Shown in pieces: positions 1-15,891 of a stretch of DNA of 64,000 bases. The stretch covers positions 12,153-76,152 of the forward strand of contig DASQNO010000118.1 of NCBI GenBank assembly GCA_035644935.1. Reading direction: 5' to 3'. This stretch comes from Sphingomonadaceae bacterium (lineage in GTDB: Bacteria; Pseudomonadota; Alphaproteobacteria; Sphingomonadales; Sphingomonadaceae). Below the pieces are notes generated by a model. The model saw only the letters and a list, made by a program, of their open reading frames with translations, did not search any database and was not told the origin of the DNA. Within the stretch, counting starts at the first letter, position 1. Each line of letters begins with the position of its first letter. The position numbers and the translations under genes are program-made.

Positions 1-1008
1 CGCCTCGCCACAGCAGGTTCGGAGGCGACCGCCAAGGGCCTGATCGGCTTTGAACTGTTCAACAAGTCCGACATGGGGCTCACCGACTTCGCGCAGAAGA
101 TCAACTACCAGCGCGCGCTGCAGGGCGAGCTGGCGCGGACCATCATGGCTATGGACGGGATTGACGGCGCGCGCGTGCACCTGGCCATCCCCGACCGGTC
201 GCTGTTCCGCGGCGTCAGGAGCGAACCCAAAGCGGCCGTGACGCTGACGTTCGAGCCGGGCAAGGCCGTCGACGAGCGCCGCGTCGCGGGCATCCAGCGC
301 CTGGTCGCCGCCGCCGTCGCCGAACTTCCCTTGGCCAACGTCACCGTGCTCGACGACGTCGGACGCATCATCAGCCAGTCGGCCGAATTCGAGGCGCCCG
401 TCGCGCCGGAAATGGCCGAGCGCACGGCGGTTCAGCAATACTACCGGGCACGGGTGCGCTCGGCGGTCGAACAGGTCATGCCGGGCCTCAAGTTCGAGGT
501 ACGCGTGCTCATCCTAGCCGCGGCTGGCGAGCCCGACATGGGCGCGTGGGACGTACCCGTGCGGGGCGACGCGGCGGCAGACGCAGCCGCCGCGCCTCGG
601 GAGCGCGACTTCGGCCTTCGTATTCTGTTCGTCACGCCGTCGGGGCTCAATGCCGAGGAACAGGGCATCATCGAAAACGCCGCCGCCCAAGCGGTGGCGC
701 TCAGGCGCAGCGCCGGCGACAGCTTTGCCTTCGCGGTCGAGCCAGTCGGCAGCCGTCTGCCCGCGCCGGTCCTGCCCGCCGTGACCGTCGCGCCCGATGC
801 GCTCGTCGTCCCCGCTCCGGACCCCACCGCGGCGGTGAAGCGGCTGGCGGAGTCGAACAACTGGCTCTTCAGCATCGCCGCGCTGGTCGCGATCGCGGCG
901 ATCTTGATCTGGCTGCGCCGCCGGGCGCCGCGTCTCTCGTCTGAGCAGCGCGACGCTTACGTCCGCCGCATTCGCCTGCAGCTGGAAGGCGGCGATGCTC
1001 GCGCCTGA
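1..1008 (+). CDS. fliF: Flagellar MS-ring protein FliF-like (YscJ/FliF family), 5' end cut by window edge
   Basis: Frame 1 is open from nt 1. FELF..NYQRALQGELARTI..ARVHLAIPDRSLF matches the FliF ring-building signature. C-terminal TM helix WLFSIAALVAIAAILIWL is followed by only 30 aa. 14-nt overlap with the next ORF. Confidence 0.8.
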   Translation, partial: RLATAGSEATAKGLIGFELFNKSDMGLTDFAQKINYQRALQGELARTIMAMDGIDGARVHLAIPDRSLFRGVRSEPKAAVTLTFEPGKAVDERRVAGIQRLVAAAVAELPLANVTVLDDVGRIISQSAEFEAPVAPEMAERTAVQQYYRARVRSAVEQVMPGLKFEVRVLILAAAGEPDMGAWDVPVRGDAAADAAAAPRERDFGLRILFVTPSGLNAEEQGIIENAAAQAVALRRSAGDSFAFAVEPVGSRLPAPVLPAVTVAPDALVVPAPDPTAAVKRLAESNNWLFSIAALVAIAAILIWLRRRAPRLSSEQRDAYVRRIRLQLEGGDARA

Positions 1009-1420
1009 CGCCTCGATCGGACCCGCCGCCGCCGACCTCGCCGCCGACCTTCGCGCGCTTGCCGTTAATCAGCGGCGACAGGTGCTTGCCTCATTGTCGC
1101 CGGCCGAGCAGGCGCGCGTTTCCGCGCTGCTGGAGCCCGTCGCAACGCCTGCGCCGGGTACCCTCGACGCGACGCCCGCCACGCGTCCTGCGTTCGCGCG
1201 CTACTCGCCCTGGCTCGCGCGGCAGCTGCAGGAGCTGCAATCGGGATCGACCGGACTGGAAGCCGGCTGGACCATGACTCCCGCGGCGCGGCGCCTGCTG
1301 CTGCAGATCGCGGCGGAAGAGGCGCGGGACGACGTGCCCCCCGCCGACCAGGCCGCTACCGGCAGCCCATCGCTGCTCGGTGCGCTCGGCGGATTGTTGG
1401 CGCGAAGGGCGAGGGTGTGA
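995..1420 (+). CDS. Hypothetical 141-aa protein in the position normally held by fliG (flagella) or sctK (injectisomes)
   Basis: ATG overlaps the fliF stop and the stop overlaps the fliH-like GTG (GTGA), so it is translationally coupled within the operon. Ala/Leu/Arg-rich. It is less than half the ~330-aa length of FliG and I recognise no FliG motif. Confidence 0.5.
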   Translation: MLAPDASIGPAAADLAADLRALAVNQRRQVLASLSPAEQARVSALLEPVATPAPGTLDATPATRPAFARYSPWLARQLQELQSGSTGLEAGWTMTPAARRLLLQIAAEEARDDVPPADQAATGSPSLLGALGGLLARRARV

Positions 1421-2088
1421 CAGCACTGATCAAAGCGCACGCGGGGCACGCCGTTCGCCGTTTCGCCGAGGGCGCGTCGATCGCGCGCGCGGTGGCCGCG
1501 TCGTCATCCCCGGCCGAAAGCGCGGAAGCGGTGCAGATGGCCGTGCTCACCCAGGAACTCGCCGAGTTGCGTCGCACGATCGCCGCGGACCGGGAGGCCG
1601 CCGCCCGCGCCGCCGCCAAGGCGCGCGAGGAGGGGCGACGCGAGGGCCGTGAACAGGCCCGGCGCGATGACGAAGCGCGGATCGCGGCACTTGGCGAAGG
1701 CCTGTCCGGCGCGCGCGCCGCGTGGGACGAACGGATCGGCGAGCTCGACGGCCTGGCAACGCTGGTGGCGCGCGCCGCGATCGCCAGGATGTTCGATGCC
1801 TGCGCCAACCACGCTGACTTCGTCGCAGGCATGGTCGCGCGGCAGCTGCGGCATCTCCGCCACGAAACGGTTCTCTTAATCCGTGTCAGCCCGGAAAATT
1901 TCACCGACGACGCGGCGCTGGCGGGGCTTGGCGCCGGCGCCATCGCCGTCGAACGCGACGATACGCTGAGCGGCGGGCAGTGCCGCATCGATCTGCAGCT
2001 CGGCCATCTCGACCTCTGCTCGCGCGCCCACTGGGCCGAGATGTCGGCGCTGCTTCACCAACTCTCCGAAGCGGAGGCCGCGGCGTGA
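1417..2088 (+). CDS. fliH: FliH/SctL-like export ATPase regulator
   Basis: Sits directly upstream of fliI. Has an Ala/Glu/Arg-rich coiled-coil centre and a C-terminal GGQCRIDLQLGHLDL block typical of the FliH/YscL family. GTGA overlaps on both sides. Confidence 0.7.
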   Translation: MTALIKAHAGHAVRRFAEGASIARAVAASSSPAESAEAVQMAVLTQELAELRRTIAADREAAARAAAKAREEGRREGREQARRDDEARIAALGEGLSGARAAWDERIGELDGLATLVARAAIARMFDACANHADFVAGMVARQLRHLRHETVLLIRVSPENFTDDAALAGLGAGAIAVERDDTLSGGQCRIDLQLGHLDLCSRAHWAEMSALLHQLSEAEAAA

Positions 2089-3428
2089 CCGCGCACCCGT
2101 TCCTCGCTGAAATCGCCCGCGCCGAGTTCGTCCGCCCGCACGGCTATGTCCGCCGCGTCGCCGCAGGCCTCGTCGAGGCGTCCGGTCCCGCGGGCGCGCT
2201 TGGCGACCTCTGCGACGTCCAATGCGAACGGCCCGACGGCGCTGCCGGCACGGTGCTCGCCGAAGTTGCGGCCGTGGACGAACGCCGCGTCGTGCTCGTG
2301 CCGCTCGAACAGCACGTCACCATCCGCCCCGATGCGCGCGTTTCCGCCCGTCCCCTGCGCGACCGCGTGCCCGTCGGGGAGGCATTCGCGGGCCGCGCGG
2401 TCGACCCGCTCGGCCGCCCGATTGACGGCGGACCCCCAATCCACGTGACGGGCTCCGCGGCGCTGATGGGCTCGGTTCCCCGGCCCATGGAGCGGGCCGA
2501 TCCCTCCCGTGTGCTGACGACCGGCATCCGCGCCATCGATGGAGTGCTGACGCTGGCGGAGGGCCAGCGCGTCGGCATCTTCGCGGCCAGCGGCGTCGGC
2601 AAGACCAGCCTGACCGAGCAGCTCGCGACGCAGATCCGCAGCGACCGCACGATCCTCTGCCTCGTCGGCGAGCGCGGGCGCGAGGTCGAGGCGCTGTGGC
2701 GCATGCTGAGCACGCGCGAGGACGCGGCGCGGTACACCGTGGTGGCGGCGACGTCCGACGAAAGCGCCGCGCTGCGCGCCCGCTCCGTCAGCTACGCGCT
2801 GTGCCTGGCCGATTACTGGCGCGCGCGCGGCGAGCATGTCCTGCTGATGGTCGACTCGATCACGCGCATGGCGATGGCCTTGCGCGAGATCGGGCTCGCC
2901 GCTGGCGCGCCGCCGACGGTGCGCGCCTACACGCCCAACGTCTTCGCCGCCTTGCCGCGGCTGGTGGAACGCTGCGGCGCGACGAAAGAGGGCGGGGCGA
3001 TCACTGCCATCATGACTGTGCTCAGCGAGACCGACGACGTCGACGATCCCATCGTCGAGTTGATGAAATCACTGCTCGACGGCCACATCGTGCTGTCCCG
3101 CGCGCTCGCCGAACAGGGTCACTTTCCCGCCATCGACGTCGCGCGCAGCGTCAGCCGTGGCGCCGACCGGTTGGTCCAGCCGGATCAGGCTAAGGCGATG
3201 CGCGAGGCGGTGTCGCTGCTCGGCGCGTACGAAGAGGCGCGGGTGATGATCGAAAGCGGCGTCTACAAGGCGGGCACCAACCCGCAGGTCGACCGCGCGA
3301 TCGCGGCGCGGCCCGGGATCAACGCCTTCTTGCGCCAGGACCGGACGGACGATGTCCGCATGGAGGAAACACTGCGCAACCTGCGCGCGGTGACCGCCGC
3401 GAGCGCGAGGGCGCCGGTTCATGCGTGA
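2085..3428 (+). CDS. fliI: Flagellum-specific/T3SS ATPase FliI
   Basis: Walker A SGVGKTSL, Walker B LLMVDSITR, and conserved HFPAIDV near the C-terminus. GTG at 2085 overlaps the fliH stop; the longer track ORF starting at 1980 lies inside fliH. Confidence 0.92.
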   Translation: MTAHPFLAEIARAEFVRPHGYVRRVAAGLVEASGPAGALGDLCDVQCERPDGAAGTVLAEVAAVDERRVVLVPLEQHVTIRPDARVSARPLRDRVPVGEAFAGRAVDPLGRPIDGGPPIHVTGSAALMGSVPRPMERADPSRVLTTGIRAIDGVLTLAEGQRVGIFAASGVGKTSLTEQLATQIRSDRTILCLVGERGREVEALWRMLSTREDAARYTVVAATSDESAALRARSVSYALCLADYWRARGEHVLLMVDSITRMAMALREIGLAAGAPPTVRAYTPNVFAALPRLVERCGATKEGGAITAIMTVLSETDDVDDPIVELMKSLLDGHIVLSRALAEQGHFPAIDVARSVSRGADRLVQPDQAKAMREAVSLLGAYEEARVMIESGVYKAGTNPQVDRAIAARPGINAFLRQDRTDDVRMEETLRNLRAVTAASARAPVHA

Positions 3429-3870
3429 CCGCGACCGCCTCGCCACAATGACCCGGCTGGCCGCCGTGCAACGCGCCAAGCGCGTCGGCGCGGAAGCCGC
3501 CCTGGGCGAGGCCCGCCGGGTTGAGGCGGAGGCGGAGACCGCCCAGGCGGACGCGCAGGCCCGCCTTGTCGACGCTCACGAACAGTGGCTGGGTCACATG
3601 GAAGCGGGCCGGTTCTCGCCCGAACTAGCGGGGCTGCTGTCGAACGCGGTGGTGGGCCGCGCCGGCGAGCTCGACCAGGCCGAGGCGCAGACCGCCACCG
3701 CCGCCGACGCGCGCGCCCGCAGCCAGTCCGAATGGCAGGTCCTGGAGGCCCGCGTGCGCGCCGGCGAGGACGGACTGCGTGACTTGCGCCGCAAGGTCGC
3801 GCGGCGGCGCGAGGAAAGCCGCGTCGCCGAACGCGCCGACCGCACAACCCTTGCATGGAGCCGGACATGA
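3421..3870 (+). CDS. fliJ: FliJ/SctO-like coiled-coil stalk protein
   Basis: 149-aa Ala/Glu/Arg/Gln-rich coiled-coil protein immediately after fliI, with an 8-nt overlap. Assigned by position and composition. Confidence 0.6.
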   Translation: MRDRDRLATMTRLAAVQRAKRVGAEAALGEARRVEAEAETAQADAQARLVDAHEQWLGHMEAGRFSPELAGLLSNAVVGRAGELDQAEAQTATAADARARSQSEWQVLEARVRAGEDGLRDLRRKVARRREESRVAERADRTTLAWSRT

Positions 3871-4730
3871 GCCTGCCCCCCGTTCACGCGCGTCCTTCGC
3901 CGCCGGCGGAACCCAGCGGTGTCAAGGGGCGACCCGGGCAGGAGGACGCATCGGCCGGGTCCGGCACTCCGTTCGACATCCTGCTGGCCGAGCGCGGCGG
4001 CGCGGCGCCGCTGCCGCTTGCGGGGCAGGACCTCGACGCAGACAGGCGGCAGGGCAGGGCCGTGCCGACTGTTGCGGAGGTGTTCAACGAACACGGCTTC
4101 TTCGCGGGCGCCGCGCCGCTCGGTTCACAATCGCCGGGCGCGCCGGCATCGCCGCAGGCCGGCGGCGTGAGTGTCGAGCCCGCGTTCGCGCACCCGGCTT
4201 CGGCAGCGCCGCGCGGCGGTGCGATGGCCTTGCCCGCCGGAGGAGCCGCGCCCGTCATCGCGGAAGCCCGTTTGGCCATGGCCGACGCTGCGCTGTCGGA
4301 GGGTGCCGTCAGGCTGGACGGCTTCGGCGGCCCCTTCCTCGCGCGCTTCGCCGGATCTCCGACCGGCGCGCCGGCTGTACCAAGAGCAGCGATGCAATCC
4401 GCCCCGCGCATCGCAGCGAGCATCGCGCGCGCGGCTTCGACCGGAGCCAGCTCGCCTTCCACGGCCGATGGATCGACTTTCGCCTCGCGCGCGGGCAAGC
4501 GCCTCGCCGCCAGGGTGGAGGAGCATCTCCGCCGCGCGGGCGGCACCGCCATCCGCGTCGATGTTCGCGCCAGCCAAGACGGGCTGCTGGTCGCAGCGCG
4601 CGCCGAGGGGCTCGACCGCGCGGAGCGCAGCCGCCTCCGGGCGGAGATCGAAGCCCTGCTCGTCCGGCACGGCCATGCGCCCGCCCGCATCAGCCTGAAC
4701 GGCGAACCCGCGCCGCCACGCCGGGCGTGA
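3867..4730 (+). CDS. FliK-like hook-length control protein (weak)
   Basis: ATG 3867 forms an ATGA overlap with the fliJ stop. Pro/Ala-rich N-terminal part and a C-terminal IRVDVRASQDGLLVAARAEG..LRAEIEALLVRHG block resembling the FliK C-terminal domain. Located before flgD-flgE. Confidence 0.5.
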   Translation: MSLPPVHARPSPPAEPSGVKGRPGQEDASAGSGTPFDILLAERGGAAPLPLAGQDLDADRRQGRAVPTVAEVFNEHGFFAGAAPLGSQSPGAPASPQAGGVSVEPAFAHPASAAPRGGAMALPAGGAAPVIAEARLAMADAALSEGAVRLDGFGGPFLARFAGSPTGAPAVPRAAMQSAPRIAASIARAASTGASSPSTADGSTFASRAGKRLAARVEEHLRRAGGTAIRVDVRASQDGLLVAARAEGLDRAERSRLRAEIEALLVRHGHAPARISLNGEPAPPRRA

Positions 4731-4743
4731 AGAGGAACATGGC

Positions 4744-5208
4744 ATGCAGGTAAGCCCCTTCCCGACGACGCCGAGCCGCCCGGTCACGACGCCCGGCCAG
4801 GCGCCAGGCGCCGCGCCTCCGGCGCAGGACCCGGCGACCAGCGCCTTCGGCCTGAGCTTCGAGTCCCTGCTCAAGATCATCCTGACGCAGCTGACCTACC
4901 AGGACCCGCTGAAGCCGATGGACAATTTCGAGTTCGTCTCGCAGCTCGCGCAGTTCTCGCAGATCCAGATCGGCCAGACGACCAACGACAAATTGTCCGC
5001 CGTCGCCACCGCGCAATCCAACCTGCAGGCCGCCGGCCTGCTCGGGCGTCAGGTCGATATCCCCGCCGGCGCCGCCACGATCAGCGGCAAGGTGGTCTCC
5101 ATCGCTTTTCAGGCGGGCGAACCGCGGCTGACCGTCGAGACGGCCGACAAGCAGACGATCAGCAACATCTCCATCGCCAGCATTTCGCAGATCCGGGAAG
5201 GAAAATAG
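4744..5208 (+). CDS. flgD: Hook capping/assembly protein FlgD
   Basis: QDPLKPMDNFEFVSQLAQFSQIQ is the conserved FlgD N-terminal signature. Directly precedes flgE. Confidence 0.85.
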   Translation: MQVSPFPTTPSRPVTTPGQAPGAAPPAQDPATSAFGLSFESLLKIILTQLTYQDPLKPMDNFEFVSQLAQFSQIQIGQTTNDKLSAVATAQSNLQAAGLLGRQVDIPAGAATISGKVVSIAFQAGEPRLTVETADKQTISNISIASISQIREGK

Positions 5209-5212
5209 GAAC

Positions 5213-6391
5213 ATGTTCGGTTCGATCTACGTGGGCCTCAGCGGCCTCAACGCCTATTCCAAGGGGCTGCAGCAGGTCAGCAGCAACATCACCAACCTGA
5301 ACTCGTCGGGGTTCAAGGCGTCCACCGTCACCTTCACCGACCAGTTCAGCGTCCGCAGCAACAACCTGGCCAACGCCAACAGCCGCGAGACCACCGGCCG
5401 CGGCGTAGACACGGGCCGCACGCAGCTCGACTACAAGCAGGGCGAACTGCGCCAGACCAACCGCGACCTCGATCTGGCCGTCGACGGCAACGGCTTTCTG
5501 ATGCTGACGCGGGGCGAGGAGGTCGCCTACACGCGCACCGGCAGTTTCGAGGTCGACAAGGACGGGTTCATCGTGCTCGCCGGCACCGACTACCGGCTGG
5601 CGACGATCGATGGTTCGGGCCGCGCGGTCAGCCTCTCGATCGACGCCTCGCGCACCAGCCCGCCCAAGCCGACGACGACGATCAAGTTCGCCGACAACCT
5701 CTCCTCCACCGCGACGACCCACGCGCTGGGCGACATCAAGGTGATCGACAAACAAGGCGGCGAGCATGTCTGGCAGGTGCAGTTCGCCAAAAAGGCCGAC
5801 GGCGCGCCCGACGAATGGACCGTCACCGTCACCGACGCCAAGGCGAAGGTCGTCGGCGCCCAGACGCTGAAGTTCAACGGCGGCATCGTCGATCCCGCCA
5901 CCGCCAAGCTCGTCTTCGCGGACGAGGAGAACGGCACGTCGGTAATGCTGGACCTGTCGGAGAACGTCACCTCCTTCTCCTCGGGCCAGGTGTCGACGCT
6001 ACGCACCGCGTCCGTGGACGGCTACAAATCGGGCACGATCACGTCGGTCGGCGTCAACGACAAGGGGGCGCTGGAGATCGGCTATTCCAACGAGCAGAAG
6101 AAGGACCTGGGCGCCGTAGCCATCGCCGACTTCCGCGACCCGCAGGCGCTGGAACAGCGCAGCGGCGGCTTGTTCGCCGACACCGGCCGCGCGGGGCGGC
6201 AGGTCGCGGGCAGCGAGGACGTCCGCGTCGGCCGCGTCCTGTCGCGCCGTCTGGAGGCCTCCAACGTCGACCTCGCCAAGCAGTTCGGCGATCTGATCTT
6301 GATCCAGCGCGGCTTTCAGGCGTCCTCGCAGATCATCAGCGTGTCCAATGACATGATCCAGCAGCTGTTCGGCATCCGGGGCCAGGGCTGA
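5213..6391 (+). CDS. flgE: Flagellar hook protein FlgE
   Basis: N-terminus MFGSIYVGLSGLNAY..NITNLNSSGFK and C-terminus EASNVDLAKQFGDLILIQRGFQASSQII match the conserved axial-protein termini. Confidence 0.9.
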   Translation: MFGSIYVGLSGLNAYSKGLQQVSSNITNLNSSGFKASTVTFTDQFSVRSNNLANANSRETTGRGVDTGRTQLDYKQGELRQTNRDLDLAVDGNGFLMLTRGEEVAYTRTGSFEVDKDGFIVLAGTDYRLATIDGSGRAVSLSIDASRTSPPKPTTTIKFADNLSSTATTHALGDIKVIDKQGGEHVWQVQFAKKADGAPDEWTVTVTDAKAKVVGAQTLKFNGGIVDPATAKLVFADEENGTSVMLDLSENVTSFSSGQVSTLRTASVDGYKSGTITSVGVNDKGALEIGYSNEQKKDLGAVAIADFRDPQALEQRSGGLFADTGRAGRQVAGSEDVRVGRVLSRRLEASNVDLAKQFGDLILIQRGFQASSQIISVSNDMIQQLFGIRGQG

Positions 6392-6420: not shown

Positions 6421-7209
6421 GTGGGTGAAGCATGCACGGCCTGGCTGCCGGCCAAGGCGTTCGCCGACGGCGTCGCCGCGCGGCGGCTGGCGGCGGCGGT
6501 GGAGGCGTGGGCGGAGCGCTGGTTCGCGGACCGGCGGGTCGCGCCGCTCGCGGATCCGGCCGCCGCGCGGGCGGCGGTCTGGCGCGCCGAGGCGGCGCAG
6601 GTCCAAAGCTTGGACGACGGCCTGGCGGTGGCGGTCGGCGACGCGGGGCGCCTCGCCATCGCGGGCGCGATGCTGGATGCCGCGATCGATGTCCGCAAGG
6701 CGCGGCCGGCGGACCGCCAGCTTTTCGATCGCCTGTCCGACGCCTGCCTCGACGACCTTCGCACGCGCATGGCGCAGGCCTTCAAGCTGGCGCCCGACGC
6801 GCGCTGGCGTGCCGGCGATAGCGTCGATGACTTGCCGCCTGCGGACGCCCACGCCTTTGGGTTCGACGACGCGGACGAGCCCTTGCTGCTGCTGTTCGTC
6901 ACGCGCGACCTGGAGGTGGCGCTGATCAAGTCGGGCTTGCGCGCGCCGCCTTCGCCGCCCGCGCTGGCGCCGCTCGCCACCGGCTTGGCCGCGCAGACGG
7001 TCGATCTGTCCGCGCTGCTCGGCCGCTGCGACCTCACCGTCGCCGAACTTGCCGAACTCACCTGCGGCGATGTCCTCGTCCTCGACCGCGACCTCGACGC
7101 CCCGCTCGATCTCGCGATCGACGGCCGGCTCAAGTCCGGCCGCTGCTCGGTCGCGCCCGATGGCGACCGGCTCCACCTCACAATCGTCCAAACACCGACC
7201 GGAAATTAG
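6421..7209 (+). CDS. SpoA-domain switch/sorting-platform protein (short FliM/SctQ-like)
   Basis: C-terminal CDLTVAELAELTCGDVLVLDRDLDAPLDLAIDGRLKSGRC resembles the FliM/FliN/YscQ SpoA domain. Only 262 aa, with no recognisable N-terminal CheY-binding LSQxEIDALL-type peptide. Confidence 0.6.
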   Translation: MGEACTAWLPAKAFADGVAARRLAAAVEAWAERWFADRRVAPLADPAAARAAVWRAEAAQVQSLDDGLAVAVGDAGRLAIAGAMLDAAIDVRKARPADRQLFDRLSDACLDDLRTRMAQAFKLAPDARWRAGDSVDDLPPADAHAFGFDDADEPLLLLFVTRDLEVALIKSGLRAPPSPPALAPLATGLAAQTVDLSALLGRCDLTVAELAELTCGDVLVLDRDLDAPLDLAIDGRLKSGRCSVAPDGDRLHLTIVQTPTGN

Positions 7210-7211
7210 CC

Positions 7212-7550
7212 ATGCTGACCGAGACCAAAGCCAACGGCGCCGCCGCTCCCTCAGCCGGCCCAGCCGCCGCACTGCAGCCCGACCCGCCGACGGCTAAGAA
7301 GGCGAGCCCGCCGGGCCGCATCGACGCCCGGCTGATCGACAATGTAGGCGTGACGCTGGAGGCGTATCTCGGCGGCGCGCGCATGACCGTGGCGGAGTTG
7401 ACCGACCTCAAGGCGGATTCTGTCGTGCCGTTGGTCGCCGCGCTCAACCAGGCGGTCGAACTGCGCCTCAACGGCGTCCCCGTCGCGCGCGGGGAGCTTG
7501 TCGCGGTGGGCGACAAGTTCGGCGTCAGGCTGGTCGAGATGGCCGGATGA
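7212..7550 (+). CDS. fliN: Flagellar motor switch protein FliN
   Basis: VTLEAYLGGARMTVAELTDLKADSVVPL...ELRLNGVPVARGELVAVGDKFGVRLVEM is a typical FliN SpoA domain. Confidence 0.85.
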   Translation: MLTETKANGAAAPSAGPAAALQPDPPTAKKASPPGRIDARLIDNVGVTLEAYLGGARMTVAELTDLKADSVVPLVAALNQAVELRLNGVPVARGELVAVGDKFGVRLVEMAG

Positions 7551-7924
7551 GGCTCGCCGCCGCCGCCGCGCCGATTCTCGTCATGGCGGGACCGGCGTGC
7601 GCCGCGGGCGGCCGGTTGGGCGGCGGGCAGCCGCTCGACGTGTCGCTCGGACGCATCGTGATCGCGCTCGTCATCGCGGTGATCGTCGCGGCGCTCGCCA
7701 TTCTGCTGGTCCGGCAGCGTTCGGGGAAGATCGATCTCGCGGCGCTGTTCGCGCGCGTCGAACTGCGCCCGCGCGCGATCCACGTCGTCGAAACGCGGCG
7801 GCTGAGCCCGCACGCGGACATCTGTCTCGTCCGCCACGGCGACCGCGAATATCTGCTGCTGCTGCTCGCCGGCCGCGCGCAGGTGCTGCGCGAAGCGCCG
7901 CACGCGGCGGAGCCGCTCCGTTGA
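7547..7924 (+). CDS. fliO: FliO-like export-gate assembly protein
   Basis: Single TM helix IVIALVIAVIVAALAILLV followed by a ~70-aa domain. Lies between fliN and fliP, with an ATGA overlap to fliN. Confidence 0.6.
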   Translation: MRLAAAAAPILVMAGPACAAGGRLGGGQPLDVSLGRIVIALVIAVIVAALAILLVRQRSGKIDLAALFARVELRPRAIHVVETRRLSPHADICLVRHGDREYLLLLLAGRAQVLREAPHAAEPLR

Positions 7925-8634
7925 CGAGGCTGCTCGCGCCGGGCGCGACGCTCGTCCTGCTGCTGCTCGCCGAGCCGGCCGTCGCCGCGCCGGCGGCCGG
8001 CACCGCGCTCAACTCGGACGTGATCCGCAACGCGCTCGTGCTGACGCTGCTCGCGGTCATCCCGGCGGTGCTGGTCAGCATGACGAGCTTCATCCGCATC
8101 GTTATCGTGCTGTCGATGGTGCGCCACGCGTTCGGCATGCCCGAAACGCCGCCCAACTCGGTGCTCGTAAGCCTCGCGCTGTTCCTCACCGCCTTTACGA
8201 TGTCGCCGACGCTGACCGCGCTCAACCAGTCTGCGGTGCAGCCGCTGCTGAGCGGCCGCATCGGCGTCGAACAGGCGATGCAGACGGGCAGCGTGCCCCT
8301 GCGCAACTTCATGCTGACGCAGACGCGCGACAGTGACATTGAATCGATCTACGCGATTTCGAACACGCCGCTGCCCCAGCGGCCCGAGCAGGTCGAGATC
8401 CTCAAGCTCGCGCCGGCGTTCATCCTCAACGAACTGCGCGTCGCCTTCACCATCGGCTTCGTGATCCTGCTGCCGTTCCTGCTGATCGACCTCGTCGTGT
8501 CGGCGATCCTCTTGTCGCTTGGCATGATGATGGTCCCGCCTGCGACCATCTCGCTGCCCATCAAGCTCCTGATGTTCGTGCTCATCGATGGATGGAAGCT
8601 GGTGCTCGAAGGGGTGCTGGGCAGTTTCAGGTGA
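7921..8634 (+). CDS. fliP: Export-gate protein FliP
   Basis: SFIRIVIVLSMVRHAFGMPETPPNSVLVSLALFLTAFTMSPT is a canonical FliP/SctR motif. TTG 7921 overlaps the fliO stop; the track ORF from 7498 is an artefactual N-terminal extension. Confidence 0.9.
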   Translation: MTRLLAPGATLVLLLLAEPAVAAPAAGTALNSDVIRNALVLTLLAVIPAVLVSMTSFIRIVIVLSMVRHAFGMPETPPNSVLVSLALFLTAFTMSPTLTALNQSAVQPLLSGRIGVEQAMQTGSVPLRNFMLTQTRDSDIESIYAISNTPLPQRPEQVEILKLAPAFILNELRVAFTIGFVILLPFLLIDLVVSAILLSLGMMMVPPATISLPIKLLMFVLIDGWKLVLEGVLGSFR

Positions 8635-9377
8635 CGCGCGCGGCCGCATCCGGGCTGGCGCTGCTGGTGCGTCCCTGCCGGGTCGAGGCTTCGCTGTGGC
8701 GCCGGTTCCGGCTGGAGGCGGTGGGCGAATGCCGCGGCGTGCTGTTCGACCGCTATCTGGGTCTCGCCCGCGCCATTGCCGCCTGCCACTATCACCGGCG
8801 ATTCGGGCACGGCATCGAACGCGGCGACTTCGAACAGTTCGCGTTCGAAGGGCTGCTGCAGGCGATCGACCGGTTCGACCCGCTGCAGGGCGTGCCGTTC
8901 GGCGCCTATGCCCGCCGCCGTATCGCGGGCAGCGTCGCGGACGGCATCTCCAAGATGACGGAGGTCGGCACGCAGATCAGCCACCGCCACCGCACCGAAC
9001 AGGAACGCCTGCGCTCGCTGGCGCGCGCAGGCGCGGACATCACCGACGAGGACGCCATCGCCGCGCTGTCCGACCTCGCGCTGGGCCTGGCGCTCGGCCT
9101 GATGCTCGAGGGGACCAGCCTGATGGAGCCGGCCGACGGCCTCGACACGCGTCCGACCGCCTACGAGACGCTGGAATGGCGGCAGATGCAGGCGGGGCTG
9201 GCGCGGGAGGTCGCGCGGCTTCCCGACGCCGAAGCCGTGGTCATTCGCCAGCATTACAACAACGGTTTAAGCTTCGCGCAGGTCGCCGAACTGCTGGGCC
9301 TCAGCCGCGGCCGCGTGTCGCAACTTCACCGCGCCGGGCTCGACCGGCTGCGCAAGAAGATGGGCGCGTTCAATTGA
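8631..9377 (+). CDS. fliA: Sigma-70 family sigma factor, FliA (sigma-28)-like
   Basis: Region 2 FEGLLQAIDRFDPLQGVPFGAYARRRIAGSVADGI and region 4 HTH LSFAQVAELLGLSRGRVSQLHRAGLDRLRK. GTG 8631 gives a GTGA overlap with the fliP stop. Confidence 0.8.
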   Translation: MTRAAASGLALLVRPCRVEASLWRRFRLEAVGECRGVLFDRYLGLARAIAACHYHRRFGHGIERGDFEQFAFEGLLQAIDRFDPLQGVPFGAYARRRIAGSVADGISKMTEVGTQISHRHRTEQERLRSLARAGADITDEDAIAALSDLALGLALGLMLEGTSLMEPADGLDTRPTAYETLEWRQMQAGLAREVARLPDAEAVVIRQHYNNGLSFAQVAELLGLSRGRVSQLHRAGLDRLRKKMGAFN

Positions 9378-9390
9378 AGAAGGATCACCG

Positions 9391-9957
9391 ATGACCACCC
9401 TGTGCAGCGACGACGAACTGCAGGAGCTGATGGCCGCGATGCAGGCGGACAGCGCCGACGAACTCGAGCGCGCCGACCGCCTTGTCGCGATCTACCCGGA
9501 GGATGCGCGGCTGCATTTTCTGCGTGGTTCGATCCTCGCCAATATCGGCCGCCCGATCGAGGCGCTGCCCGCGCTCAAGCGGTCCGTCGAGCTCGCGCCC
9601 GATTTTTCGCTGGCGCGGTTTCAGACCGGCTTCTTCCAGCTGACTTCGGGCGAGGCGGCGGATGCGCTGGGCACCTGGGGGCCGCTGGCGATGCTGCCGG
9701 CCGACAATTACCTGCGCATGTTCGTCGCGGGGCTGACCCACCTGATCCGCGACGAGTTCGCCGAGGCGGTCGCGCAGCTCGAAGCCGGCATCGCGGCCAA
9801 CGAGGAGAACCCGCCGCTCAACCGCGACATGCAGCTGATCATCGATCAGACGACCGAGCTGATGGCGGGCGCGCCGGCCGTGTTGCCCGAGGAAACCGGG
9901 AGCGCATCGGCCACCAGCTTCCTGCTGGGCCAGTTCGATCGCGGGCGGCCCAACTGA
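9391..9957 (+). CDS. TPR-repeat protein (188 aa)
   Basis: TPR-like helix pairs (ARLHFLRGSILANIGRPIEALPALKRSVELAPDFSLARFQTGFFQL). Weak Shine-Dalgarno-like purine-rich motif (GAAGGA) upstream of the ATG. Immediately follows the sigma factor. Confidence 0.6.
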   Translation: MTTLCSDDELQELMAAMQADSADELERADRLVAIYPEDARLHFLRGSILANIGRPIEALPALKRSVELAPDFSLARFQTGFFQLTSGEAADALGTWGPLAMLPADNYLRMFVAGLTHLIRDEFAEAVAQLEAGIAANEENPPLNRDMQLIIDQTTELMAGAPAVLPEETGSASATSFLLGQFDRGRPN

Positions 9958-9980
9958 CCCGCGTCACGTCTTCCGATCAT

Positions 9981-10277
9981 GTGCTGCTGCTGCTGCGCGA
10001 GCAGTTGCAGCGGCTCGACCGGGCGGGCGCCAAGCGGACGGCCCCGGGCGCCAAGCCGACGGCGGCGCCGATGGCGCGGCTGCGGGCGTTGGGGGATGTC
10101 CCGGACAAGGAATTCAAGCGGACGCTGGTGCGCGCGCTGCTGGCCGAGCGGATGGGAGAAGGGGTGGCCAACGACCCCGCGTTCCAGGCGGTGATCGACG
10201 ATGTTTACCGCATCATCGACGAAAGCGACGACGGACGGGCGCTGATTCACCGCGCCGCGACGCGTTTGCGGGGGTGA
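9981..10277 (+). CDS. Hypothetical small protein (about 98 aa; start uncertain)
   Basis: Open frame after the TPR gene, ending inside a terminator hairpin. GTG 9981 is the first plausible start. No family recognised. Confidence 0.35.
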   Translation: MLLLLREQLQRLDRAGAKRTAPGAKPTAAPMARLRALGDVPDKEFKRTLVRALLAERMGEGVANDPAFQAVIDDVYRIIDESDDGRALIHRAATRLRG

Positions 10278-11714: not shown

Positions 11715-13745
11715 CTACGCCTCCAGCTTGACGACATCGAAAGACTTGAGATTGATCCGCATCGGGATCTCGTTGACCGATAGCACCGACAATCGCGGGA
11801 TGCTGCGCTTGGTGAACGCCTTCAACTGACGCCGCACCTCCGCCCCGCACAGCAGCACGGGCGAGCGACCCTCCCGGTGCATGTCCTCCGACATCGCCGA
11901 CAGCTTGCGGATCAATTGCTCGGCCAGTTTCGGCTCGACCAGCAGCGTGCCGCGCGGGCCCGCCTGCCCGGCGTTGGTGGTGATCTGGTTCTCGATCCGG
12001 GGATCGAGGCTCAGCACCGCCAGGTCGTTGTGCTTGCCGCGAAGCTGGTGGCAGATCGAATGGCTGATGCGCTGGCGCACCAGTTCGGTGAGCTCCCCCG
12101 TCTCCTTTTGCGTGCGGGCGAGGTCGGTCAGATGCTCCAGGATCAGGTCGACATTGGCGATGGACACGCCTTCGCCCAGCAGGTTCTGCAGCACGCGCTG
12201 GACGTCGGAGATGGTCAGGCTGTTGGGGATCAGCTCTTCAAGCAATCCCGGCTGGCGTTCGCGGACGTCCTCCATCATCTTCACGACAACCGATCGCGTC
12301 ACCAAAGTCGCCATCTCGCTCTGCACGATCTCCCCGAAATGCGTGATCAGCACGGTGACGGGGTCGATGACCTTGAGCCCCGCCGCGCGCGCTTCCGCCG
12401 CCGCTTCGGGCAGGATCCACAAGGCGGGGAGCCCAAAGGCGGGATCCTCGGTCGCGATGCCGTCCAGCTTGACCGTCTCGTCTCCCGACCGGATCGCCAG
12501 CACCCGGTCCGGATGGATTTCGGCCAGCGCGAAGCGCGACCCGAACAGGCGGATCTCGTATTGGAGCGTCCCCAGCCCCGCGCCGTCCCCCATGCGCACC
12601 GCCGGGAAGCCCAGCCCGTAGTCGCCCTCGAAGACGCGACGCAGGCCCGCAATGCGATCGGTGACGATCGCCTCCTCCGCTTTCCAGGCCTGGCTCAGCT
12701 CGCTTCCCAGCCGGATCTCGAGCGCGGGGGCGGGACCCGCGCCCGCCAGCTCGTCGGCCGCCGCCTCCACCTCGCGCGCGGCCTCCGCAATCGCCGGCGC
12801 GGCCTTGCGCGCCTTGTACCAGGCGAGCAGCGCCAGCGCGATGATGATGGCGATCGGCCATTTGGGCATGCCGGGCAGCAGCAGCAGCGCCAGCAGGATC
12901 GCCGCGACGATCAGCGGGATGCGCGGCACCGACGCCAGCTGGCGGAACACCTCGGTGCTGAGCTCCCGGTCCGCTGACGAGCGCGTGACGATGATGCCGG
13001 TGGCGATGGCGATGATGAGCGCGGGCAGCTGCGTCGCGATGCCGTCGCCGATGGTCAGCAGCGTGAACCGCTCCAGCGCCACGTCCCACGCCATGTCCAT
13101 CTGAACGACGCCGATGATCCACCCGCCGATGATGTTGATCAGGAGGATCAGGATGCCGGCGATGGCGTCGCCCTTCACGAACTTGCTGGCGCCGTCCATC
13201 GACCCGTAGAACGAGGCCTCTTTCTCCAGCTCCTCGCGCCGCTGCACCGCCTGCTTCTGGTCGATCAGACCCATGTTGAGGTCGGCGTCGATGCTCATCT
13301 GCTGGCCGGGCATCGAATCCAGCATGAAGCGCGCCGCGACTTCCGACACGCGCTGCGCGCCCGCGGTTACGACGACGTACTGCACCACCACGAGGATCAG
13401 GAACACGACCAAACCGATAACGAAATTGCCCTGCACGGCGAACGTGCCGATGGAGCCGATCACTTCGCCGGCATCAGCGCCGGTCAGGATCAGGCGGGTG
13501 GCGGCGACGTTGAGCGACAGGCGGAAGAGCGTGGCGAGCAGCAGCAGCGAGGGAAAGGTCGAGAACTCCACCGGCTTGCCGACGTAAAAGGTCAGCAACA
13601 GGATCGTCAGCGCGAAGCCGAAATTGATGAGGATGGCGAGGTCCAGCACCGCCGGCGGGATCGGCGAGAACAGGATGGTGAGGATCAGCACCATGCCGAT
13701 CACCAGCGCCAGGTCCTTGTTATTGCGGAGCGTCTTGCCGAGCAT
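11715..13745 (-). CDS. flhA: Export-gate protein FlhA
   Basis: FPSLLLLATLFRLSLNVAATRLIL and the downstream conserved TM and cytoplasmic blocks. ATG at 13745 (MLGKTLRNNKDLAL). Confidence 0.95.
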   Translation of the reverse strand: MLGKTLRNNKDLALVIGMVLILTILFSPIPPAVLDLAILINFGFALTILLLTFYVGKPVEFSTFPSLLLLATLFRLSLNVAATRLILTGADAGEVIGSIGTFAVQGNFVIGLVVFLILVVVQYVVVTAGAQRVSEVAARFMLDSMPGQQMSIDADLNMGLIDQKQAVQRREELEKEASFYGSMDGASKFVKGDAIAGILILLINIIGGWIIGVVQMDMAWDVALERFTLLTIGDGIATQLPALIIAIATGIIVTRSSADRELSTEVFRQLASVPRIPLIVAAILLALLLLPGMPKWPIAIIIALALLAWYKARKAAPAIAEAAREVEAAADELAGAGPAPALEIRLGSELSQAWKAEEAIVTDRIAGLRRVFEGDYGLGFPAVRMGDGAGLGTLQYEIRLFGSRFALAEIHPDRVLAIRSGDETVKLDGIATEDPAFGLPALWILPEAAAEARAAGLKVIDPVTVLITHFGEIVQSEMATLVTRSVVVKMMEDVRERQPGLLEELIPNSLTISDVQRVLQNLLGEGVSIANVDLILEHLTDLARTQKETGELTELVRQRISHSICHQLRGKHNDLAVLSLDPRIENQITTNAGQAGPRGTLLVEPKLAEQLIRKLSAMSEDMHREGRSPVLLCGAEVRRQLKAFTKRSIPRLSVLSVNEIPMRINLKSFDVVKLEA

Positions 13746-14856
13746 CGTTGTTACCTGAGGTGGCCGCTCGCGCGGCGTTGTCGGTGGTCGCCGCGCGGGC
13801 GGCGTGGAGCTTGAAATAAAGGTCGGCGACGCCGCCATATTCGTTCGCGCCGATCTCGCGGCCGGTCTCGCCGCGCTCGTACAGGGCGCGCGCCAGCGGG
13901 CGGTTCTCGAAGATCGGGATGCCGAGGCGGAAGGCCTGGCGCTTCATCGCCAGCGCGTTGTGGTTGCGGGCCTTGGCGGTGACGGTGGGCGCCGCCATCG
14001 TCGCCGCGTCGTAGCCCAGCGCCACCGCGACATGCTGCGGATTAACGATCAGCATGTCGGAGCCGGGGAGCTTGCCCAGGTCCTTGGACTGCTGAACGAA
14101 TTCGGCGTGCAGCTGCTTTCGCTTCTGCCGCATCCTGGGCTCGCCTTCCCTGTCCTTGGACTCGCGCGTCAGCTCGCTGCGGCTCATGCGCATCTGCTTG
14201 CTGTATTCGCGGCGCACCATGATCTGGTCGATGCCGGCGAAGAACAGGGCCAGCAGGATGAACAGCATCAGCAGGCGGGTGCCGACGCCCCGCATCGCGT
14301 CGGCAAGGCCGGCGGCGCCGTCGCCGTAGAAGCCCGGCGTCGTCATCACCGACTTGACCACCAGGAACGTCACGGTGGCGTAGGCGGCGAACTTGACGAC
14401 GTTCTTCAGCGCCTCCTTGAGCATGCGCACCGAGAACAGCCGCTTGAGGCCCTTGGCCGGGTTGATCTTGGAGAAATCGGGCTTCAGCGGATGTGTGGTG
14501 AAGATCAGCCCGCGCAGCTGCACCACCTCGAACAGCAAAGCGATCGCGACCACCGTTCCGCCCAGCAGCAGGATGGGCTGCAGCGCCGGCCAGTACACGG
14601 CGGCCATCGTGGCGGTGGCGTGCTGCGGATCGGTGGCGCCTTCGATCCCCGCGCCCAGCGAGCGCCGCATCAGCAGCGCCAGCGTTTGCGCGACGCCTTC
14701 GCCGGCCACCGTCAGAAACGCCGCCAGCGCGAGCAGCACGCCGAAAAAGCCCAGGTCCATGCCGCGCGCGACCTGGCCCTTCTCCCGCGCGCGCTTGAGC
14801 TTAAAGGGGGTCGCCTCCTCGCTCTTGTTCTGTTCGCCGCCGCCGCCGTCGGACAT
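13720..14856 (-). CDS. flhB: Export switch protein FlhB
   Basis: N-terminus EQNKSEEATPFKLKRAREKGQVARG. The autocleavage loop reads NPQH (canonical NPTH) in LIVNPQHVAVALGY. ATGA overlap with the fliR stop. Confidence 0.9.
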   Translation of the reverse strand: MSDGGGGEQNKSEEATPFKLKRAREKGQVARGMDLGFFGVLLALAAFLTVAGEGVAQTLALLMRRSLGAGIEGATDPQHATATMAAVYWPALQPILLLGGTVVAIALLFEVVQLRGLIFTTHPLKPDFSKINPAKGLKRLFSVRMLKEALKNVVKFAAYATVTFLVVKSVMTTPGFYGDGAAGLADAMRGVGTRLLMLFILLALFFAGIDQIMVRREYSKQMRMSRSELTRESKDREGEPRMRQKRKQLHAEFVQQSKDLGKLPGSDMLIVNPQHVAVALGYDAATMAAPTVTAKARNHNALAMKRQAFRLGIPIFENRPLARALYERGETGREIGANEYGGVADLYFKLHAARAATTDNAARAATSGNNDARQDAPQ

Positions 14857-15611
14857 CAGATAAGCGCGATCGCGGTTTCGAGCGCGTAGCGGATCATGCG
14901 CAGGAACAGGGCGCCCGACAGCGTAATCGCGATCGGCAGCACGATCAGCATCGCCAGCGCCTTGACCTGAAAGCCCAGCAGCAGGACGTTCATCTGCGGC
15001 ATCGTCCGGCTCATCAGCGAGATCGCGATGTCCAGCGTGAAGAGCACCAGCATCAGCAGCCCGCCGGCGCCGAACGCCATCACGAATACCGCCGACATGT
15101 AGCCGGTGAGCGCGCCGAGGTCGCCGCCGATCCCCGCCGACCCCAGCGGCACCTGGTCGACCGACGCCGCCCAGATCGCCAGCATGTCGGCCGGGCCGTC
15201 CGTGGCGAAGAAGATCGCCGCCGCCGCGTAGGCGAACAGGGTGCCCGCCAGCGGCACCTGCGCCCGCGTCGTGGGGTCGAGCAGCATCGACAGGCCGAAC
15301 CCCGCCTGGATGTCGATCGCCCGCCCCACCGTCTGCAGCGCGGCGAACGCCAGCTGGAGGGCCAGCGACAGCCCGACGCCGAGCAGCAGCTCGCCCAAGG
15401 CCGTGACGAACAGGCCCGGCGCCCAGAAATCGGCGCGCCACGTCTGGTTCGGGTGGCCCGACACCAGCCACGCCGCCAGGCTGACGCTCAGCATCACGCG
15501 CACCAGAGCGGGGACGCGCAGCAGCGTGAACGGCGGCGAGAAGGCGAACGCGGGCGCGATGCGCAGGCTGACCAGCAGCGTCGCCACGAACTGATTGCTA
15601 TAGTCTTCCAA
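14856..15611 (-). CDS. fliR: Export-gate protein FliR
   Basis: Polytopic membrane protein starting LLVSLRIAPAFAFSPPF, typical of FliR/SctT. Lies between fliQ and flhB. Confidence 0.9.
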   Translation of the reverse strand: MEDYSNQFVATLLVSLRIAPAFAFSPPFTLLRVPALVRVMLSVSLAAWLVSGHPNQTWRADFWAPGLFVTALGELLLGVGLSLALQLAFAALQTVGRAIDIQAGFGLSMLLDPTTRAQVPLAGTLFAYAAAAIFFATDGPADMLAIWAASVDQVPLGSAGIGGDLGALTGYMSAVFVMAFGAGGLLMLVLFTLDIAISLMSRTMPQMNVLLLGFQVKALAMLIVLPIAITLSGALFLRMIRYALETAIALI

Positions 15612-15621
15612 GGCCGGCCGC

Positions 15622-15891
15622 TTATCCGCCCAGCGTCGGGATGATCAGGTAGAGCGAGGTCGCGAAATTGGTCATGCGGCCCATCATCCACGGCCCGATC
15701 GCGATCAGCAGAAAGGCCGCCGTCAGGATCTTGGGGACATAGGTCAGCGTCATTTCCTGAAGCTGCGTCGTCACCTGGAACACACTGATCATCAGGCCGA
15801 CGAGCAGCGTCGCGATCAGGATGGGACCGCCGACGATCAGGCTCTGCCACAGCATGTCGTTCAGGAAATTGAGCGCGCGATCGGTTCCCAC
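15622..15891 (-). CDS. fliQ: Export-gate protein FliQ
   Basis: LLVGLMISVFQVTTQLQEMTLTYVPKILTAAFLLIAIGPWM is the FliQ/SctS signature. GTG 15891 gives the usual ~89 aa. Confidence 0.85.
   Translation of the reverse strand: MGTDRALNFLNDMLWQSLIVGGPILIATLLVGLMISVFQVTTQLQEMTLTYVPKILTAAFLLIAIGPWMMGRMTNFATSLYLIIPTLGG

Follow-up and report, generated by a model that had tools for sequence, protein, structure and literature searches.

The window analysed here, 64,000 nucleotides of a Sphingomonadaceae bacterium (assembly GCA_035644935.1, contig DASQNO010000118.1, forward-strand positions 12,153 to 76,152), carries a flagellar-type gene cluster in which apparently true FliM and FliN are kept, yet the place of FliG, between fliF and fliH, is held by a protein of about 130 residues that belongs to no known family. 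FliG is regarded as an indispensable part of the basal-body core, attaching the C-ring to the MS-ring and receiving torque. The protein found in its place, here called X, is a drastically reduced FliG or its replacement. The gene content strongly supports a machine that cannot rotate by any known mechanism and that terminates in a hook. Our preferred reading, to which we assign a probability of about 45%, is that X would be an adaptor between the FliF tail and FliM/FliN, descended from FliG.

The absence of motor, stator and filament was established by profile searches. The host genome (2.96 Mb, 69% G+C) is 99.9% complete. It gave no match to FliG_C (PF01706), to MotA_N and MotB_plug, or to Flagellin_N, a profile that would also detect FlgL, and full-length FliG (TIGR00207) was not matched even at E ≤ 10. 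An iterative search with the rod and hook proteins of the cluster recovered just FlgC, FlgF, FlgG and FlgE in this genome, and therefore no FlgK-like junction protein. Of 15 genomes carrying X, 11 lack every one of FliG, flagellin and MotA; the remaining four have the three together at a distant locus, corresponding to an ordinary flagellum. These absences indicate that the X-type cluster is an autonomous machine without a rotor torque domain, stator or filament. What the cluster keeps are the export gate, FliH, FliI and FliJ (the last by position), the rod, the L and P rings, the hook, FliM and FliN. An earlier note on this DNA had raised the possibility of a non-rotating machine, and the lack of FliG, MotB, flagellin and post-hook axial proteins in this nearly complete genome, together with the 11 carriers, strongly supports it. 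The supply of FliG from elsewhere in the genome was considered separately and ruled out for the host and ten other carriers by profile searches.

X is a real gene and more than a chance open reading frame (ORF). Its limits, the 14-nucleotide overlap of fliF with its start (the fliF stop codon lies at 1006-1008) and the GTGA overlap of its stop codon with the GTG of fliH at 1417 are all present in the sequence as the earlier note had given them. The ratio of nonsynonymous to synonymous substitutions (dN/dS) is 0.21 against a homologue with 74% identity, indicating that purifying selection acts on X. In distant pairs the ratio is 0.4-0.6, with saturated synonymous sites. These higher values, and linkers that vary strongly, could be taken to mean that X is a decaying remnant without function, kept because its ends overlap its neighbours. 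Such a reading is close to refuted by intact frames of constant size across several alphaproteobacterial orders, by four motifs conserved at 75-95% and by the low dN/dS at moderate distance.

The family is unannotated. X has no meaningful match among Pfam and NCBIfam families, and the single named database record of the family that we encountered carries the label 'hypothetical protein'. A homologue search of 1.84 billion representative proteins gave 61 clusters at 50% identity, each of 117-142 residues and aligned over most of the query. Ten closer homologues are all metagenomic. The 138 sequences collected have 103-151 residues, with a median of 128. No remote or longer members were gained by a profile search of a large protein collection, and a scan of genome contigs with the alignment of close homologues, whose patterns were too specific, found nothing. 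A longer FliG hidden by a sequencing frameshift was ruled out, as the homologues are intact, end at one point and all fall within the size range given above. Apparent open frames of 259-367 residues in some genomes were also rejected, being stop-free upstream stretches of high-GC DNA and not fusions. No fused or extended copy of X was found, nor any natural FliF-X fusion.

The slot between fliF and fliH was then followed by means of the short FliF encoded there. A scan of 185,579 species genomes gave 198 relatives of this FliF, and the best 80 loci were examined. The X profile matched in the slot at 75 of them, and divergent copies of 110-115 residues were recognised by eye in two more. Wherever the sequence of the slot could be read, the member in it is intact. 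At the 75 profile-matched loci X starts within about 85 nucleotides of the fliF stop (about 15 or fewer in most) and ends at or just ahead of the fliH start. Three contigs stop at or inside the slot: one is without an X call and two have truncated X matches that are included in the 75. In a metagenome-assembled genome of an uncultured Sphingomonas sp. (OY729425.1; L086, about 7100-7900), fliF is split and its last 40 or so codons lie about 800 nucleotides downstream, which suggests an insertion that inactivated the cluster there. The earlier note had named two findings that would count against it, a FliG concealed by a frameshift and the lack of the ORF from orthologous clusters; both were looked for and neither held.

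Carriers belong mostly to Sphingomonadales, with Caulobacterales in addition. Among the 80 loci are those of cultured bacteria such as Sphingomonas elodea ATCC 31461, S. leidyi DSM 4733, S. mali and S. oligophenolica, and also Caulobacter vibrioides T5M6 and Brevundimonas faecalis. Metagenome contigs keep the order fliE-fliF-X-fliH-fliI, as does Sphingomonas (Allosphingosinicella) deserti GL-C-18, a type strain; the homologues in both share just 29-35% identity with X, yet occupy the identical slot in identical gene order. Within the family of the host, X is present in 15 of 401 genomes and in 10 of 112 genera. A class-wide search of about 400 genomes with the family profile gave no match outside this family; that sample is too sparse, since the short-FliF scan found Caulobacterales and other carriers. 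The cluster was also seen on contigs binned as 'Parcubacteria group bacterium' (L127) and 'Pirellula sp.' (L148). These clusters are of alphaproteobacterial type, probably reflecting mis-binning and, less likely, horizontal transfer.

Both presumed neighbours of X in the machine differ from their canonical counterparts. The whole FliF has about 424 residues (full ORF on the host contig, C118) versus about 550-600 in canonical proteins, and the short form was also noted to fall some 130-180 residues below canonical length. Canonical FliFs from 250 genomes, with open frames mostly of 540-650 residues, align with its N-terminal 280 or so positions alone, and the region of the third ring-building motif and collar is strongly diverged or reduced. 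Aligned over the 80 loci, the cytoplasmic tail has a median of 34 residues and the consensus rR..r.rLs..er.aFA.rLRr.L. Canonical alphaproteobacterial FliF tails are much longer and carry the terminal motif VKASSLRKIGEIVDKHPEEA..IIRNWMYQE, which is the FliG-binding part of the protein and is absent from the short FliF. To judge from these alignments, the short FliF has lost the canonical FliG-binding tail.

The Pfam match of the 262-residue FliM is confined to its C-terminal SpoA domain. However, its AlphaFold2 model (predicted local distance difference test, pLDDT, 75.7; predicted template modelling score, pTM, 0.60) matches in Foldseek the full-length Salmonella FliM of C-ring structures from electron cryo-microscopy (E 6e-6, probability 1.0), as well as isolated FliM middle domains and CheC/CheX. 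According to the model, this 'SpoA-only' protein is a structurally genuine FliM that keeps its middle domain. In canonical motors it is the FliM middle domain that binds and sits under FliG. The invariant residues of the cluster FliM are an N-terminal WLP and W30/W34; its best conserved parts are this WLP and a tryptophan-rich helix. With the FliF tail and FliM both altered, both sides of the joint between MS-ring and C-ring have been remodelled together.

In the alignment of the 138 sequences, from which all conservation figures are taken, X consists of four conserved motifs, and the linkers between them are variable and rich in Pro and Ala. From the family alignment, AlphaFold2 predicts six helices (residues 11-21, 24-33, 36-46, 72-82, 96-112 and 128-139), with a mean pLDDT of 72.7, values of about 90 over residues 21-40 and a pTM of just 0.36. 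In the model the helices are confident and their mutual arrangement is not, as is expected if a protein needs its partners in order to fold. Residues 19-46, the helix pair already picked out in the earlier note, form the best conserved and most confidently modelled stretch of X.

Four independent signals hint at an origin from FliG. First, MgtE_N (PF03448), which we take to belong to the FliG superfamily or clan, is the sole recurrent Pfam match, found below threshold in 26 of 68 family members; in the four members inspected, a segment equivalent to about residues 4-44 of X falls on profile positions 63-100 every time. Second, in a Foldseek search of the X model against the PDB, FliG accounts for four of the ten top listed matches (3hjl, full-length; 8wiw_3; 1lkv; and 5wuj_B, which is FliG_N in the H. 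pylori complex of FliF with FliG), all non-significant. Third, hhalign places X colinear with positions 28-152 of 30 alphaproteobacterial FliG sequences, with P=0.12 when 68 X sequences are used, P=0.072 with 138 and P=0.043 for the N-terminal 50 residues of X alone, against P=0.85 for a reversed-profile control. Finally, the order fliF-X-fliH is otherwise that of fliF-fliG-fliH.

Several points weigh against descent from FliG and against the adaptor role. None of the four signals is significant. The best MgtE_N score (E 0.0022, 18.9 bits) is below the cut-off of 25.9 bits, and this model presumably tends to catch charged helical segments in unrelated flagellar proteins. All Foldseek matches have E ≥ 4.3 and a probability of 0.09 or less, and the hhalign probability for X and FliG does not exceed 1.2%. 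An EHPQR-type motif for FliM binding is absent from X. No GGXG motif is evident in the cluster FliM, so the canonical contact between FliG_M and FliM cannot be what is conserved. In addition, Salmonella exports without a C-ring at lower efficiency, so that a linker is not strictly required.

Direct comparison with the FliG models was negative throughout. FliG_N, FliG_M and FliG_C have no match in X at E ≤ 0.1 or in the 68 members at E ≤ 1, and X has no significant match to TIGR00207, PF14842, PF14841 or PF01706. The protein is too short to hold the FliG middle domain, and PF14841 does not match it. A profile search of the PDB with X gave matches at chance level (E ≥ 0.35), with neither a FliG nor a SctK entry among them. 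The missing FliG C-terminal motif of the earlier note was thus confirmed, extending to the 68 members. The vague FliG_N likeness that it described has gained the sub-threshold MgtE_N matches and the non-significant FliG folds, and no significant match.

These results could also be explained if X had the same adaptor role with no descent from FliG, as an unrelated small protein recruited after the loss of fliG and a true analogue of the injectisome protein SctK. All similarity to FliG is sub-significant, not one member is matched by a FliG model of Pfam or NCBIfam, and X is built of short motifs and variable linkers instead of a compact domain. However, the weak signals converge on the FliG superfamily without scatter, and the gene order strictly parallels that of fliF-fliG-fliH. 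For SctK in particular, no Pfam match to YscK (PF06578) or OrgA/MxiK (PF09482) was found in X or the 68 members, and no SctK was among the Foldseek matches. Among the genes annotated in the cluster none looked SctD-like, though no search aimed at SctD was made. The SctK analogue proposed in the earlier note therefore stands as an analogy of position and function, and not of sequence or fold; we regard recruitment of an unrelated protein as rather unlikely. X as a detached C-terminal domain of FliF was tried as well and ruled out (hhalign against 18 canonical FliF C-termini, P=0.6; reversed control, P=0.49).

The FliG-derived adaptor that we favour could work as follows. X would be a structural component, on the cytoplasmic side, of a flagellum-derived, non-rotating hook-basal-body export machine. 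It would take over the one job of FliG that is still needed, the coupling of the ring formed by FliF to that of FliM/FliN and, via FliN, to the FliH-FliI ATPase complex. Its N-terminal three-helix unit (residues 11-46) may clamp or co-fold with the amphipathic helix of the short FliF tail; in real motors FliG_N (PF14842) co-folds with the FliF C-terminus (PDB 5TDY, 5WUJ). Motifs 2-4 (SPWLA, MTPAxR..L and the SL..G.LL helix) would contact the FliM middle domain and/or neighbouring X subunits, and perhaps FliN or FliH. In this way X could hold a FliM/FliN ring, or pods, beneath the export gate, giving FliH-FliI a place to dock. Lacking both a torque helix and a stator, such an assembly would not move and would be used for export alone. 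X would have arisen from fliG by loss of the middle domain and the torque-bearing C-terminal domain and by heavy divergence of the remainder. We infer all the physical contacts of X, as well as its FliG descent. The adaptor role draws on the retained FliM middle domain, that is, on a partner that needs a linker, and no other conserved cytoplasmic protein specific to the cluster is positioned to bridge FliF and FliM.

The coupling of the fliH start to the X stop codon would also suit an accessory of the export ATPase or gate, either a regulator or tether of FliH/FliI or a chaperone for hook-type proteins or cargo. Flexible linkers are appropriate to a tether with several partners, and X is small and all-helical like FliS, FliT and FlgN. 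On the other hand, chaperone genes are not known in this slot of flagellar operons, the X model is not a helical bundle (pTM 0.36) and the tetratricopeptide repeat (TPR) proteins of the cluster are better candidates for chaperones. An ATPase accessory would also leave the attachment of FliM/FliN to FliF unexplained, and we consider a function of this kind decidedly improbable.

Partial disorder, helical content and a size near that of FlgM would be in keeping with an exported regulator, such as an FlgM-like anti-sigma factor for a sigma factor of the cluster or another early substrate. In S. deserti, the orthologous cluster includes a sigma-70-family gene of its own, located after fliP, and stray sub-threshold matches to RskA_N (three), PhyR_sigma-like (two) and Sigma70_r4_2 (one) occur among the 68 members. 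FlgM itself (PF04316) is not among the families matched by X or by these members, a separate ORF of about 110 residues beside the sigma and TPR genes is a better-placed anti-sigma candidate, and the slot of X is fixed within the structural fliF-fliH block at all loci. It is thus very improbable that X is exported to regulate transcription or as an early substrate.

Like FliG_N, X is an all-helical protein encoded between fliF and fliH, its N-terminal pattern L..L...xR..vL..Lsp.Er....LL is typical of FliG/MgtE_N-type repeats, it is predicted not to form a stable fold alone, and its best profile and fold matches, non-significant, are to FliG. It differs from FliG in size (103-151 versus about 335-370 residues), in lacking the EHPQR middle domain and the torque helix, in having a FliF partner with a different and much shorter tail, and in having no stator to engage. 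SctK (YscK, OrgA/MxiK, HrpD) is likewise encoded between the inner-ring gene (sctJ, against fliF here) and sctL/fliH, and both proteins are proposed to link the membrane ring to the SctQ or FliM-FliN platform of a non-rotating type III machine. SctK, however, has about 200-240 residues and works with the ring protein SctD, on whose cytoplasmic, FHA-like domain it docks, and the X machine keeps the flagellar rod, L and P rings and hook, with no secretin and needle.

Flagellum-related machines without motor and filament have been described elsewhere. In the Lysobacter enzymogenes system resembling the type III secretion system of flagella (FT3SS), fliC, fliD, flgK/L, fliG, fliM and motAB were undetected by BLAST, FlgD is secreted in a FliI-dependent manner, which indicates that such machines can be active, and the authors considered that divergent fliG, fliM, fliH or fliJ homologues were possibly missed (PMC7688988, PMC9927559). 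A 'second putative flagellar system' (PFS2) or type III secretion system that lacks flaA and fliD is on record for Legionella micdadei and L. fallonii (PMC5655016). These systems share with the X machine an export apparatus, basal body and hook and the lack of flagellin. They differ in belonging to Gammaproteobacteria, and a gene in the fliF-fliH slot is not described in those papers. A phylum-wide profile search with the short FliF returned canonical long FliFs alone and no gammaproteobacterial relatives. The type of machine is therefore known in outline, and as far as we could find, no description of the X family or of a protein in the fliF-fliH slot has been published.

If X is the ring linker, it would define the minimal coupling of MS-ring to C-ring needed for export alone, and would provide a natural experiment separating the assembly parts of FliG from its rotation parts and a living parallel to the step in injectisome origin at which FliG was lost and SctK gained. 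In this way X has a bearing on the conversion of flagella into secretion devices that do not rotate. Cultured, harmless and tractable carriers such as Sphingomonas elodea, S. leidyi and Caulobacter vibrioides T5M6 allow direct tests. As the family is unannotated, genome surveys score such clusters as 'FliG missing'. A broader proposal combines these elements: X would be the final remnant of FliG in flagellum-derived type III machines that gave up rotation and form a widespread lineage in Alphaproteobacteria, representing a second, independent route from flagellum to static secretion. This route would keep FliM/FliN, rod, L and P rings and hook, with FliG shrunk to a clip from FliF to FliM, in parallel with the origin of injectisomes, and a giant RHS protein frequently encoded next to the cluster would be the cargo or tip of an undescribed delivery pathway. 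We advance this combination tentatively and find it somewhat doubtful as a whole.

The features of the region are collected in Table 1. The plus-strand operon runs from flgF, flgG, flgA, flgH, flgI, a gene in the flgB position, flgC, fliE, fliF and X to fliH, fliI, genes in the fliJ and fliK positions, flgD, flgE, fliM, fliN, fliO and fliP. A convergent operon holds flhA and fliR.

Table 1. Positions in the window of X, its motifs and the surrounding genes of the cluster
Feature	Position	Strand	Remarks
Short fliF, 3' part	1..1008	+	PF01514 1.4e-39; TIGR00206 130.4 bits against a cut-off of 129.75; start upstream of the window
FliF second transmembrane helix, WLFSIAALVAIAAILIW	862..912	+	Read from sequence; position inferred from hydrophobicity
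FliF cytoplasmic tail, 31 residues	913..1005	+	Conserved amphipathic helix; proposed docking site of X
Shine-Dalgarno sequence GGAAGG for X	984..989	+	Within the end of fliF, 6-11 nt ahead of the X start codon; read from sequence
Protein X ORF	995..1420	+	141 aa; ATG at 995, TGA at 1418-1420; unannotated family in the FliG slot
X motif 1, residues 12-46	1028..1132	+	L..L...LraLp.rdRrAvLa.Lsp.ER.r..aLL; three short helices; FliG/MgtE_N-like unit
X motif 2, residues 71-78	1205..1228	+	SPWLa.rl at start of helix 4; S71 95%, W73 75%
X motif 3, residues 94-102	1274..1300	+	mTpAaR.aL at start of helix 5; T95 93%, L102 91%
X motif 4, residues 125-135	1367..1399	+	rSL..a.g.lL; C-terminal hydrophobic helix, then basic residues; L127 88%
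fliH, 223 aa	1417..2088	+	TIGR03825 8.4e-6; GTGA-coupled to X; position before fliI conserved
fliI ATPase	2085..3428	+	PF00006 1e-74, T3SS_ATPase_C; probable start codon GTG at 2085, overlapping the stop of fliH
fliJ-position gene, 149 aa	3421..3870	+	Position alone; no family match; a 149-aa gene is conserved here in relatives
fliK-position gene, 291 aa	3855..4730	+	Position alone
flgD, hook cap	4744..5208	+	PF03963 2.3e-15
flgE, hook	5213..6391	+	TIGR03506 1.7e-68
fliM, 262 aa	6421..7209	+	CheC-like middle domain and C-terminal SpoA (PF01052); no recognisable CheY-binding N-terminus
fliN	7212..7550	+	PF01052 2.1e-18
fliO (weak match) and fliP	7547..8634	+	PF04347 6.5e-4; PF00813 2.2e-69
flhA	11715..13838	-	PF00771 9.7e-221
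fliR	14856..15644	-	PF01311 4.7e-40

The homologues of the fliI product have 441-448 residues. This ATPase scores 438.8 bits with the FliI model and 431.7 bits with the injectisome SctN model, both under the respective cut-offs, suggesting a lineage diverging from the typical ATPases of flagella. On the 3' side of fliP there are a sigma-70-family gene, a TPR protein of about 185 residues and an ORF of about 110 residues (S. deserti L043, 17553-19258; window, about 8588-10277), and the opposite operon ends with a second TPR protein. Among the products of these genes there may be a dedicated regulator, along with a chaperone and either a small substrate or an anti-sigma factor.

A giant protein with RHS/YD repeats (2,856-4,457 residues where complete) is encoded directly upstream of flgF, mostly in divergent orientation. 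Of 14 loci inspected, 8 have it if the fragments in L060 are counted. Its positions include 2-5674 of the host contig (C118), upstream of the window start, and 1-2989 of S. deserti L043, and it is found also in L059, L061, L066 and L068. The S. deserti protein has hints of PT-HINT, LysM and ribonuclease domains. This RHS protein may be the cargo or a tip structure of the hook-only machine. In a close metagenomic relative (L002, 2195-2878), an IS200-type (Y1_Tnp) transposase lies between the RHS region and flgF.

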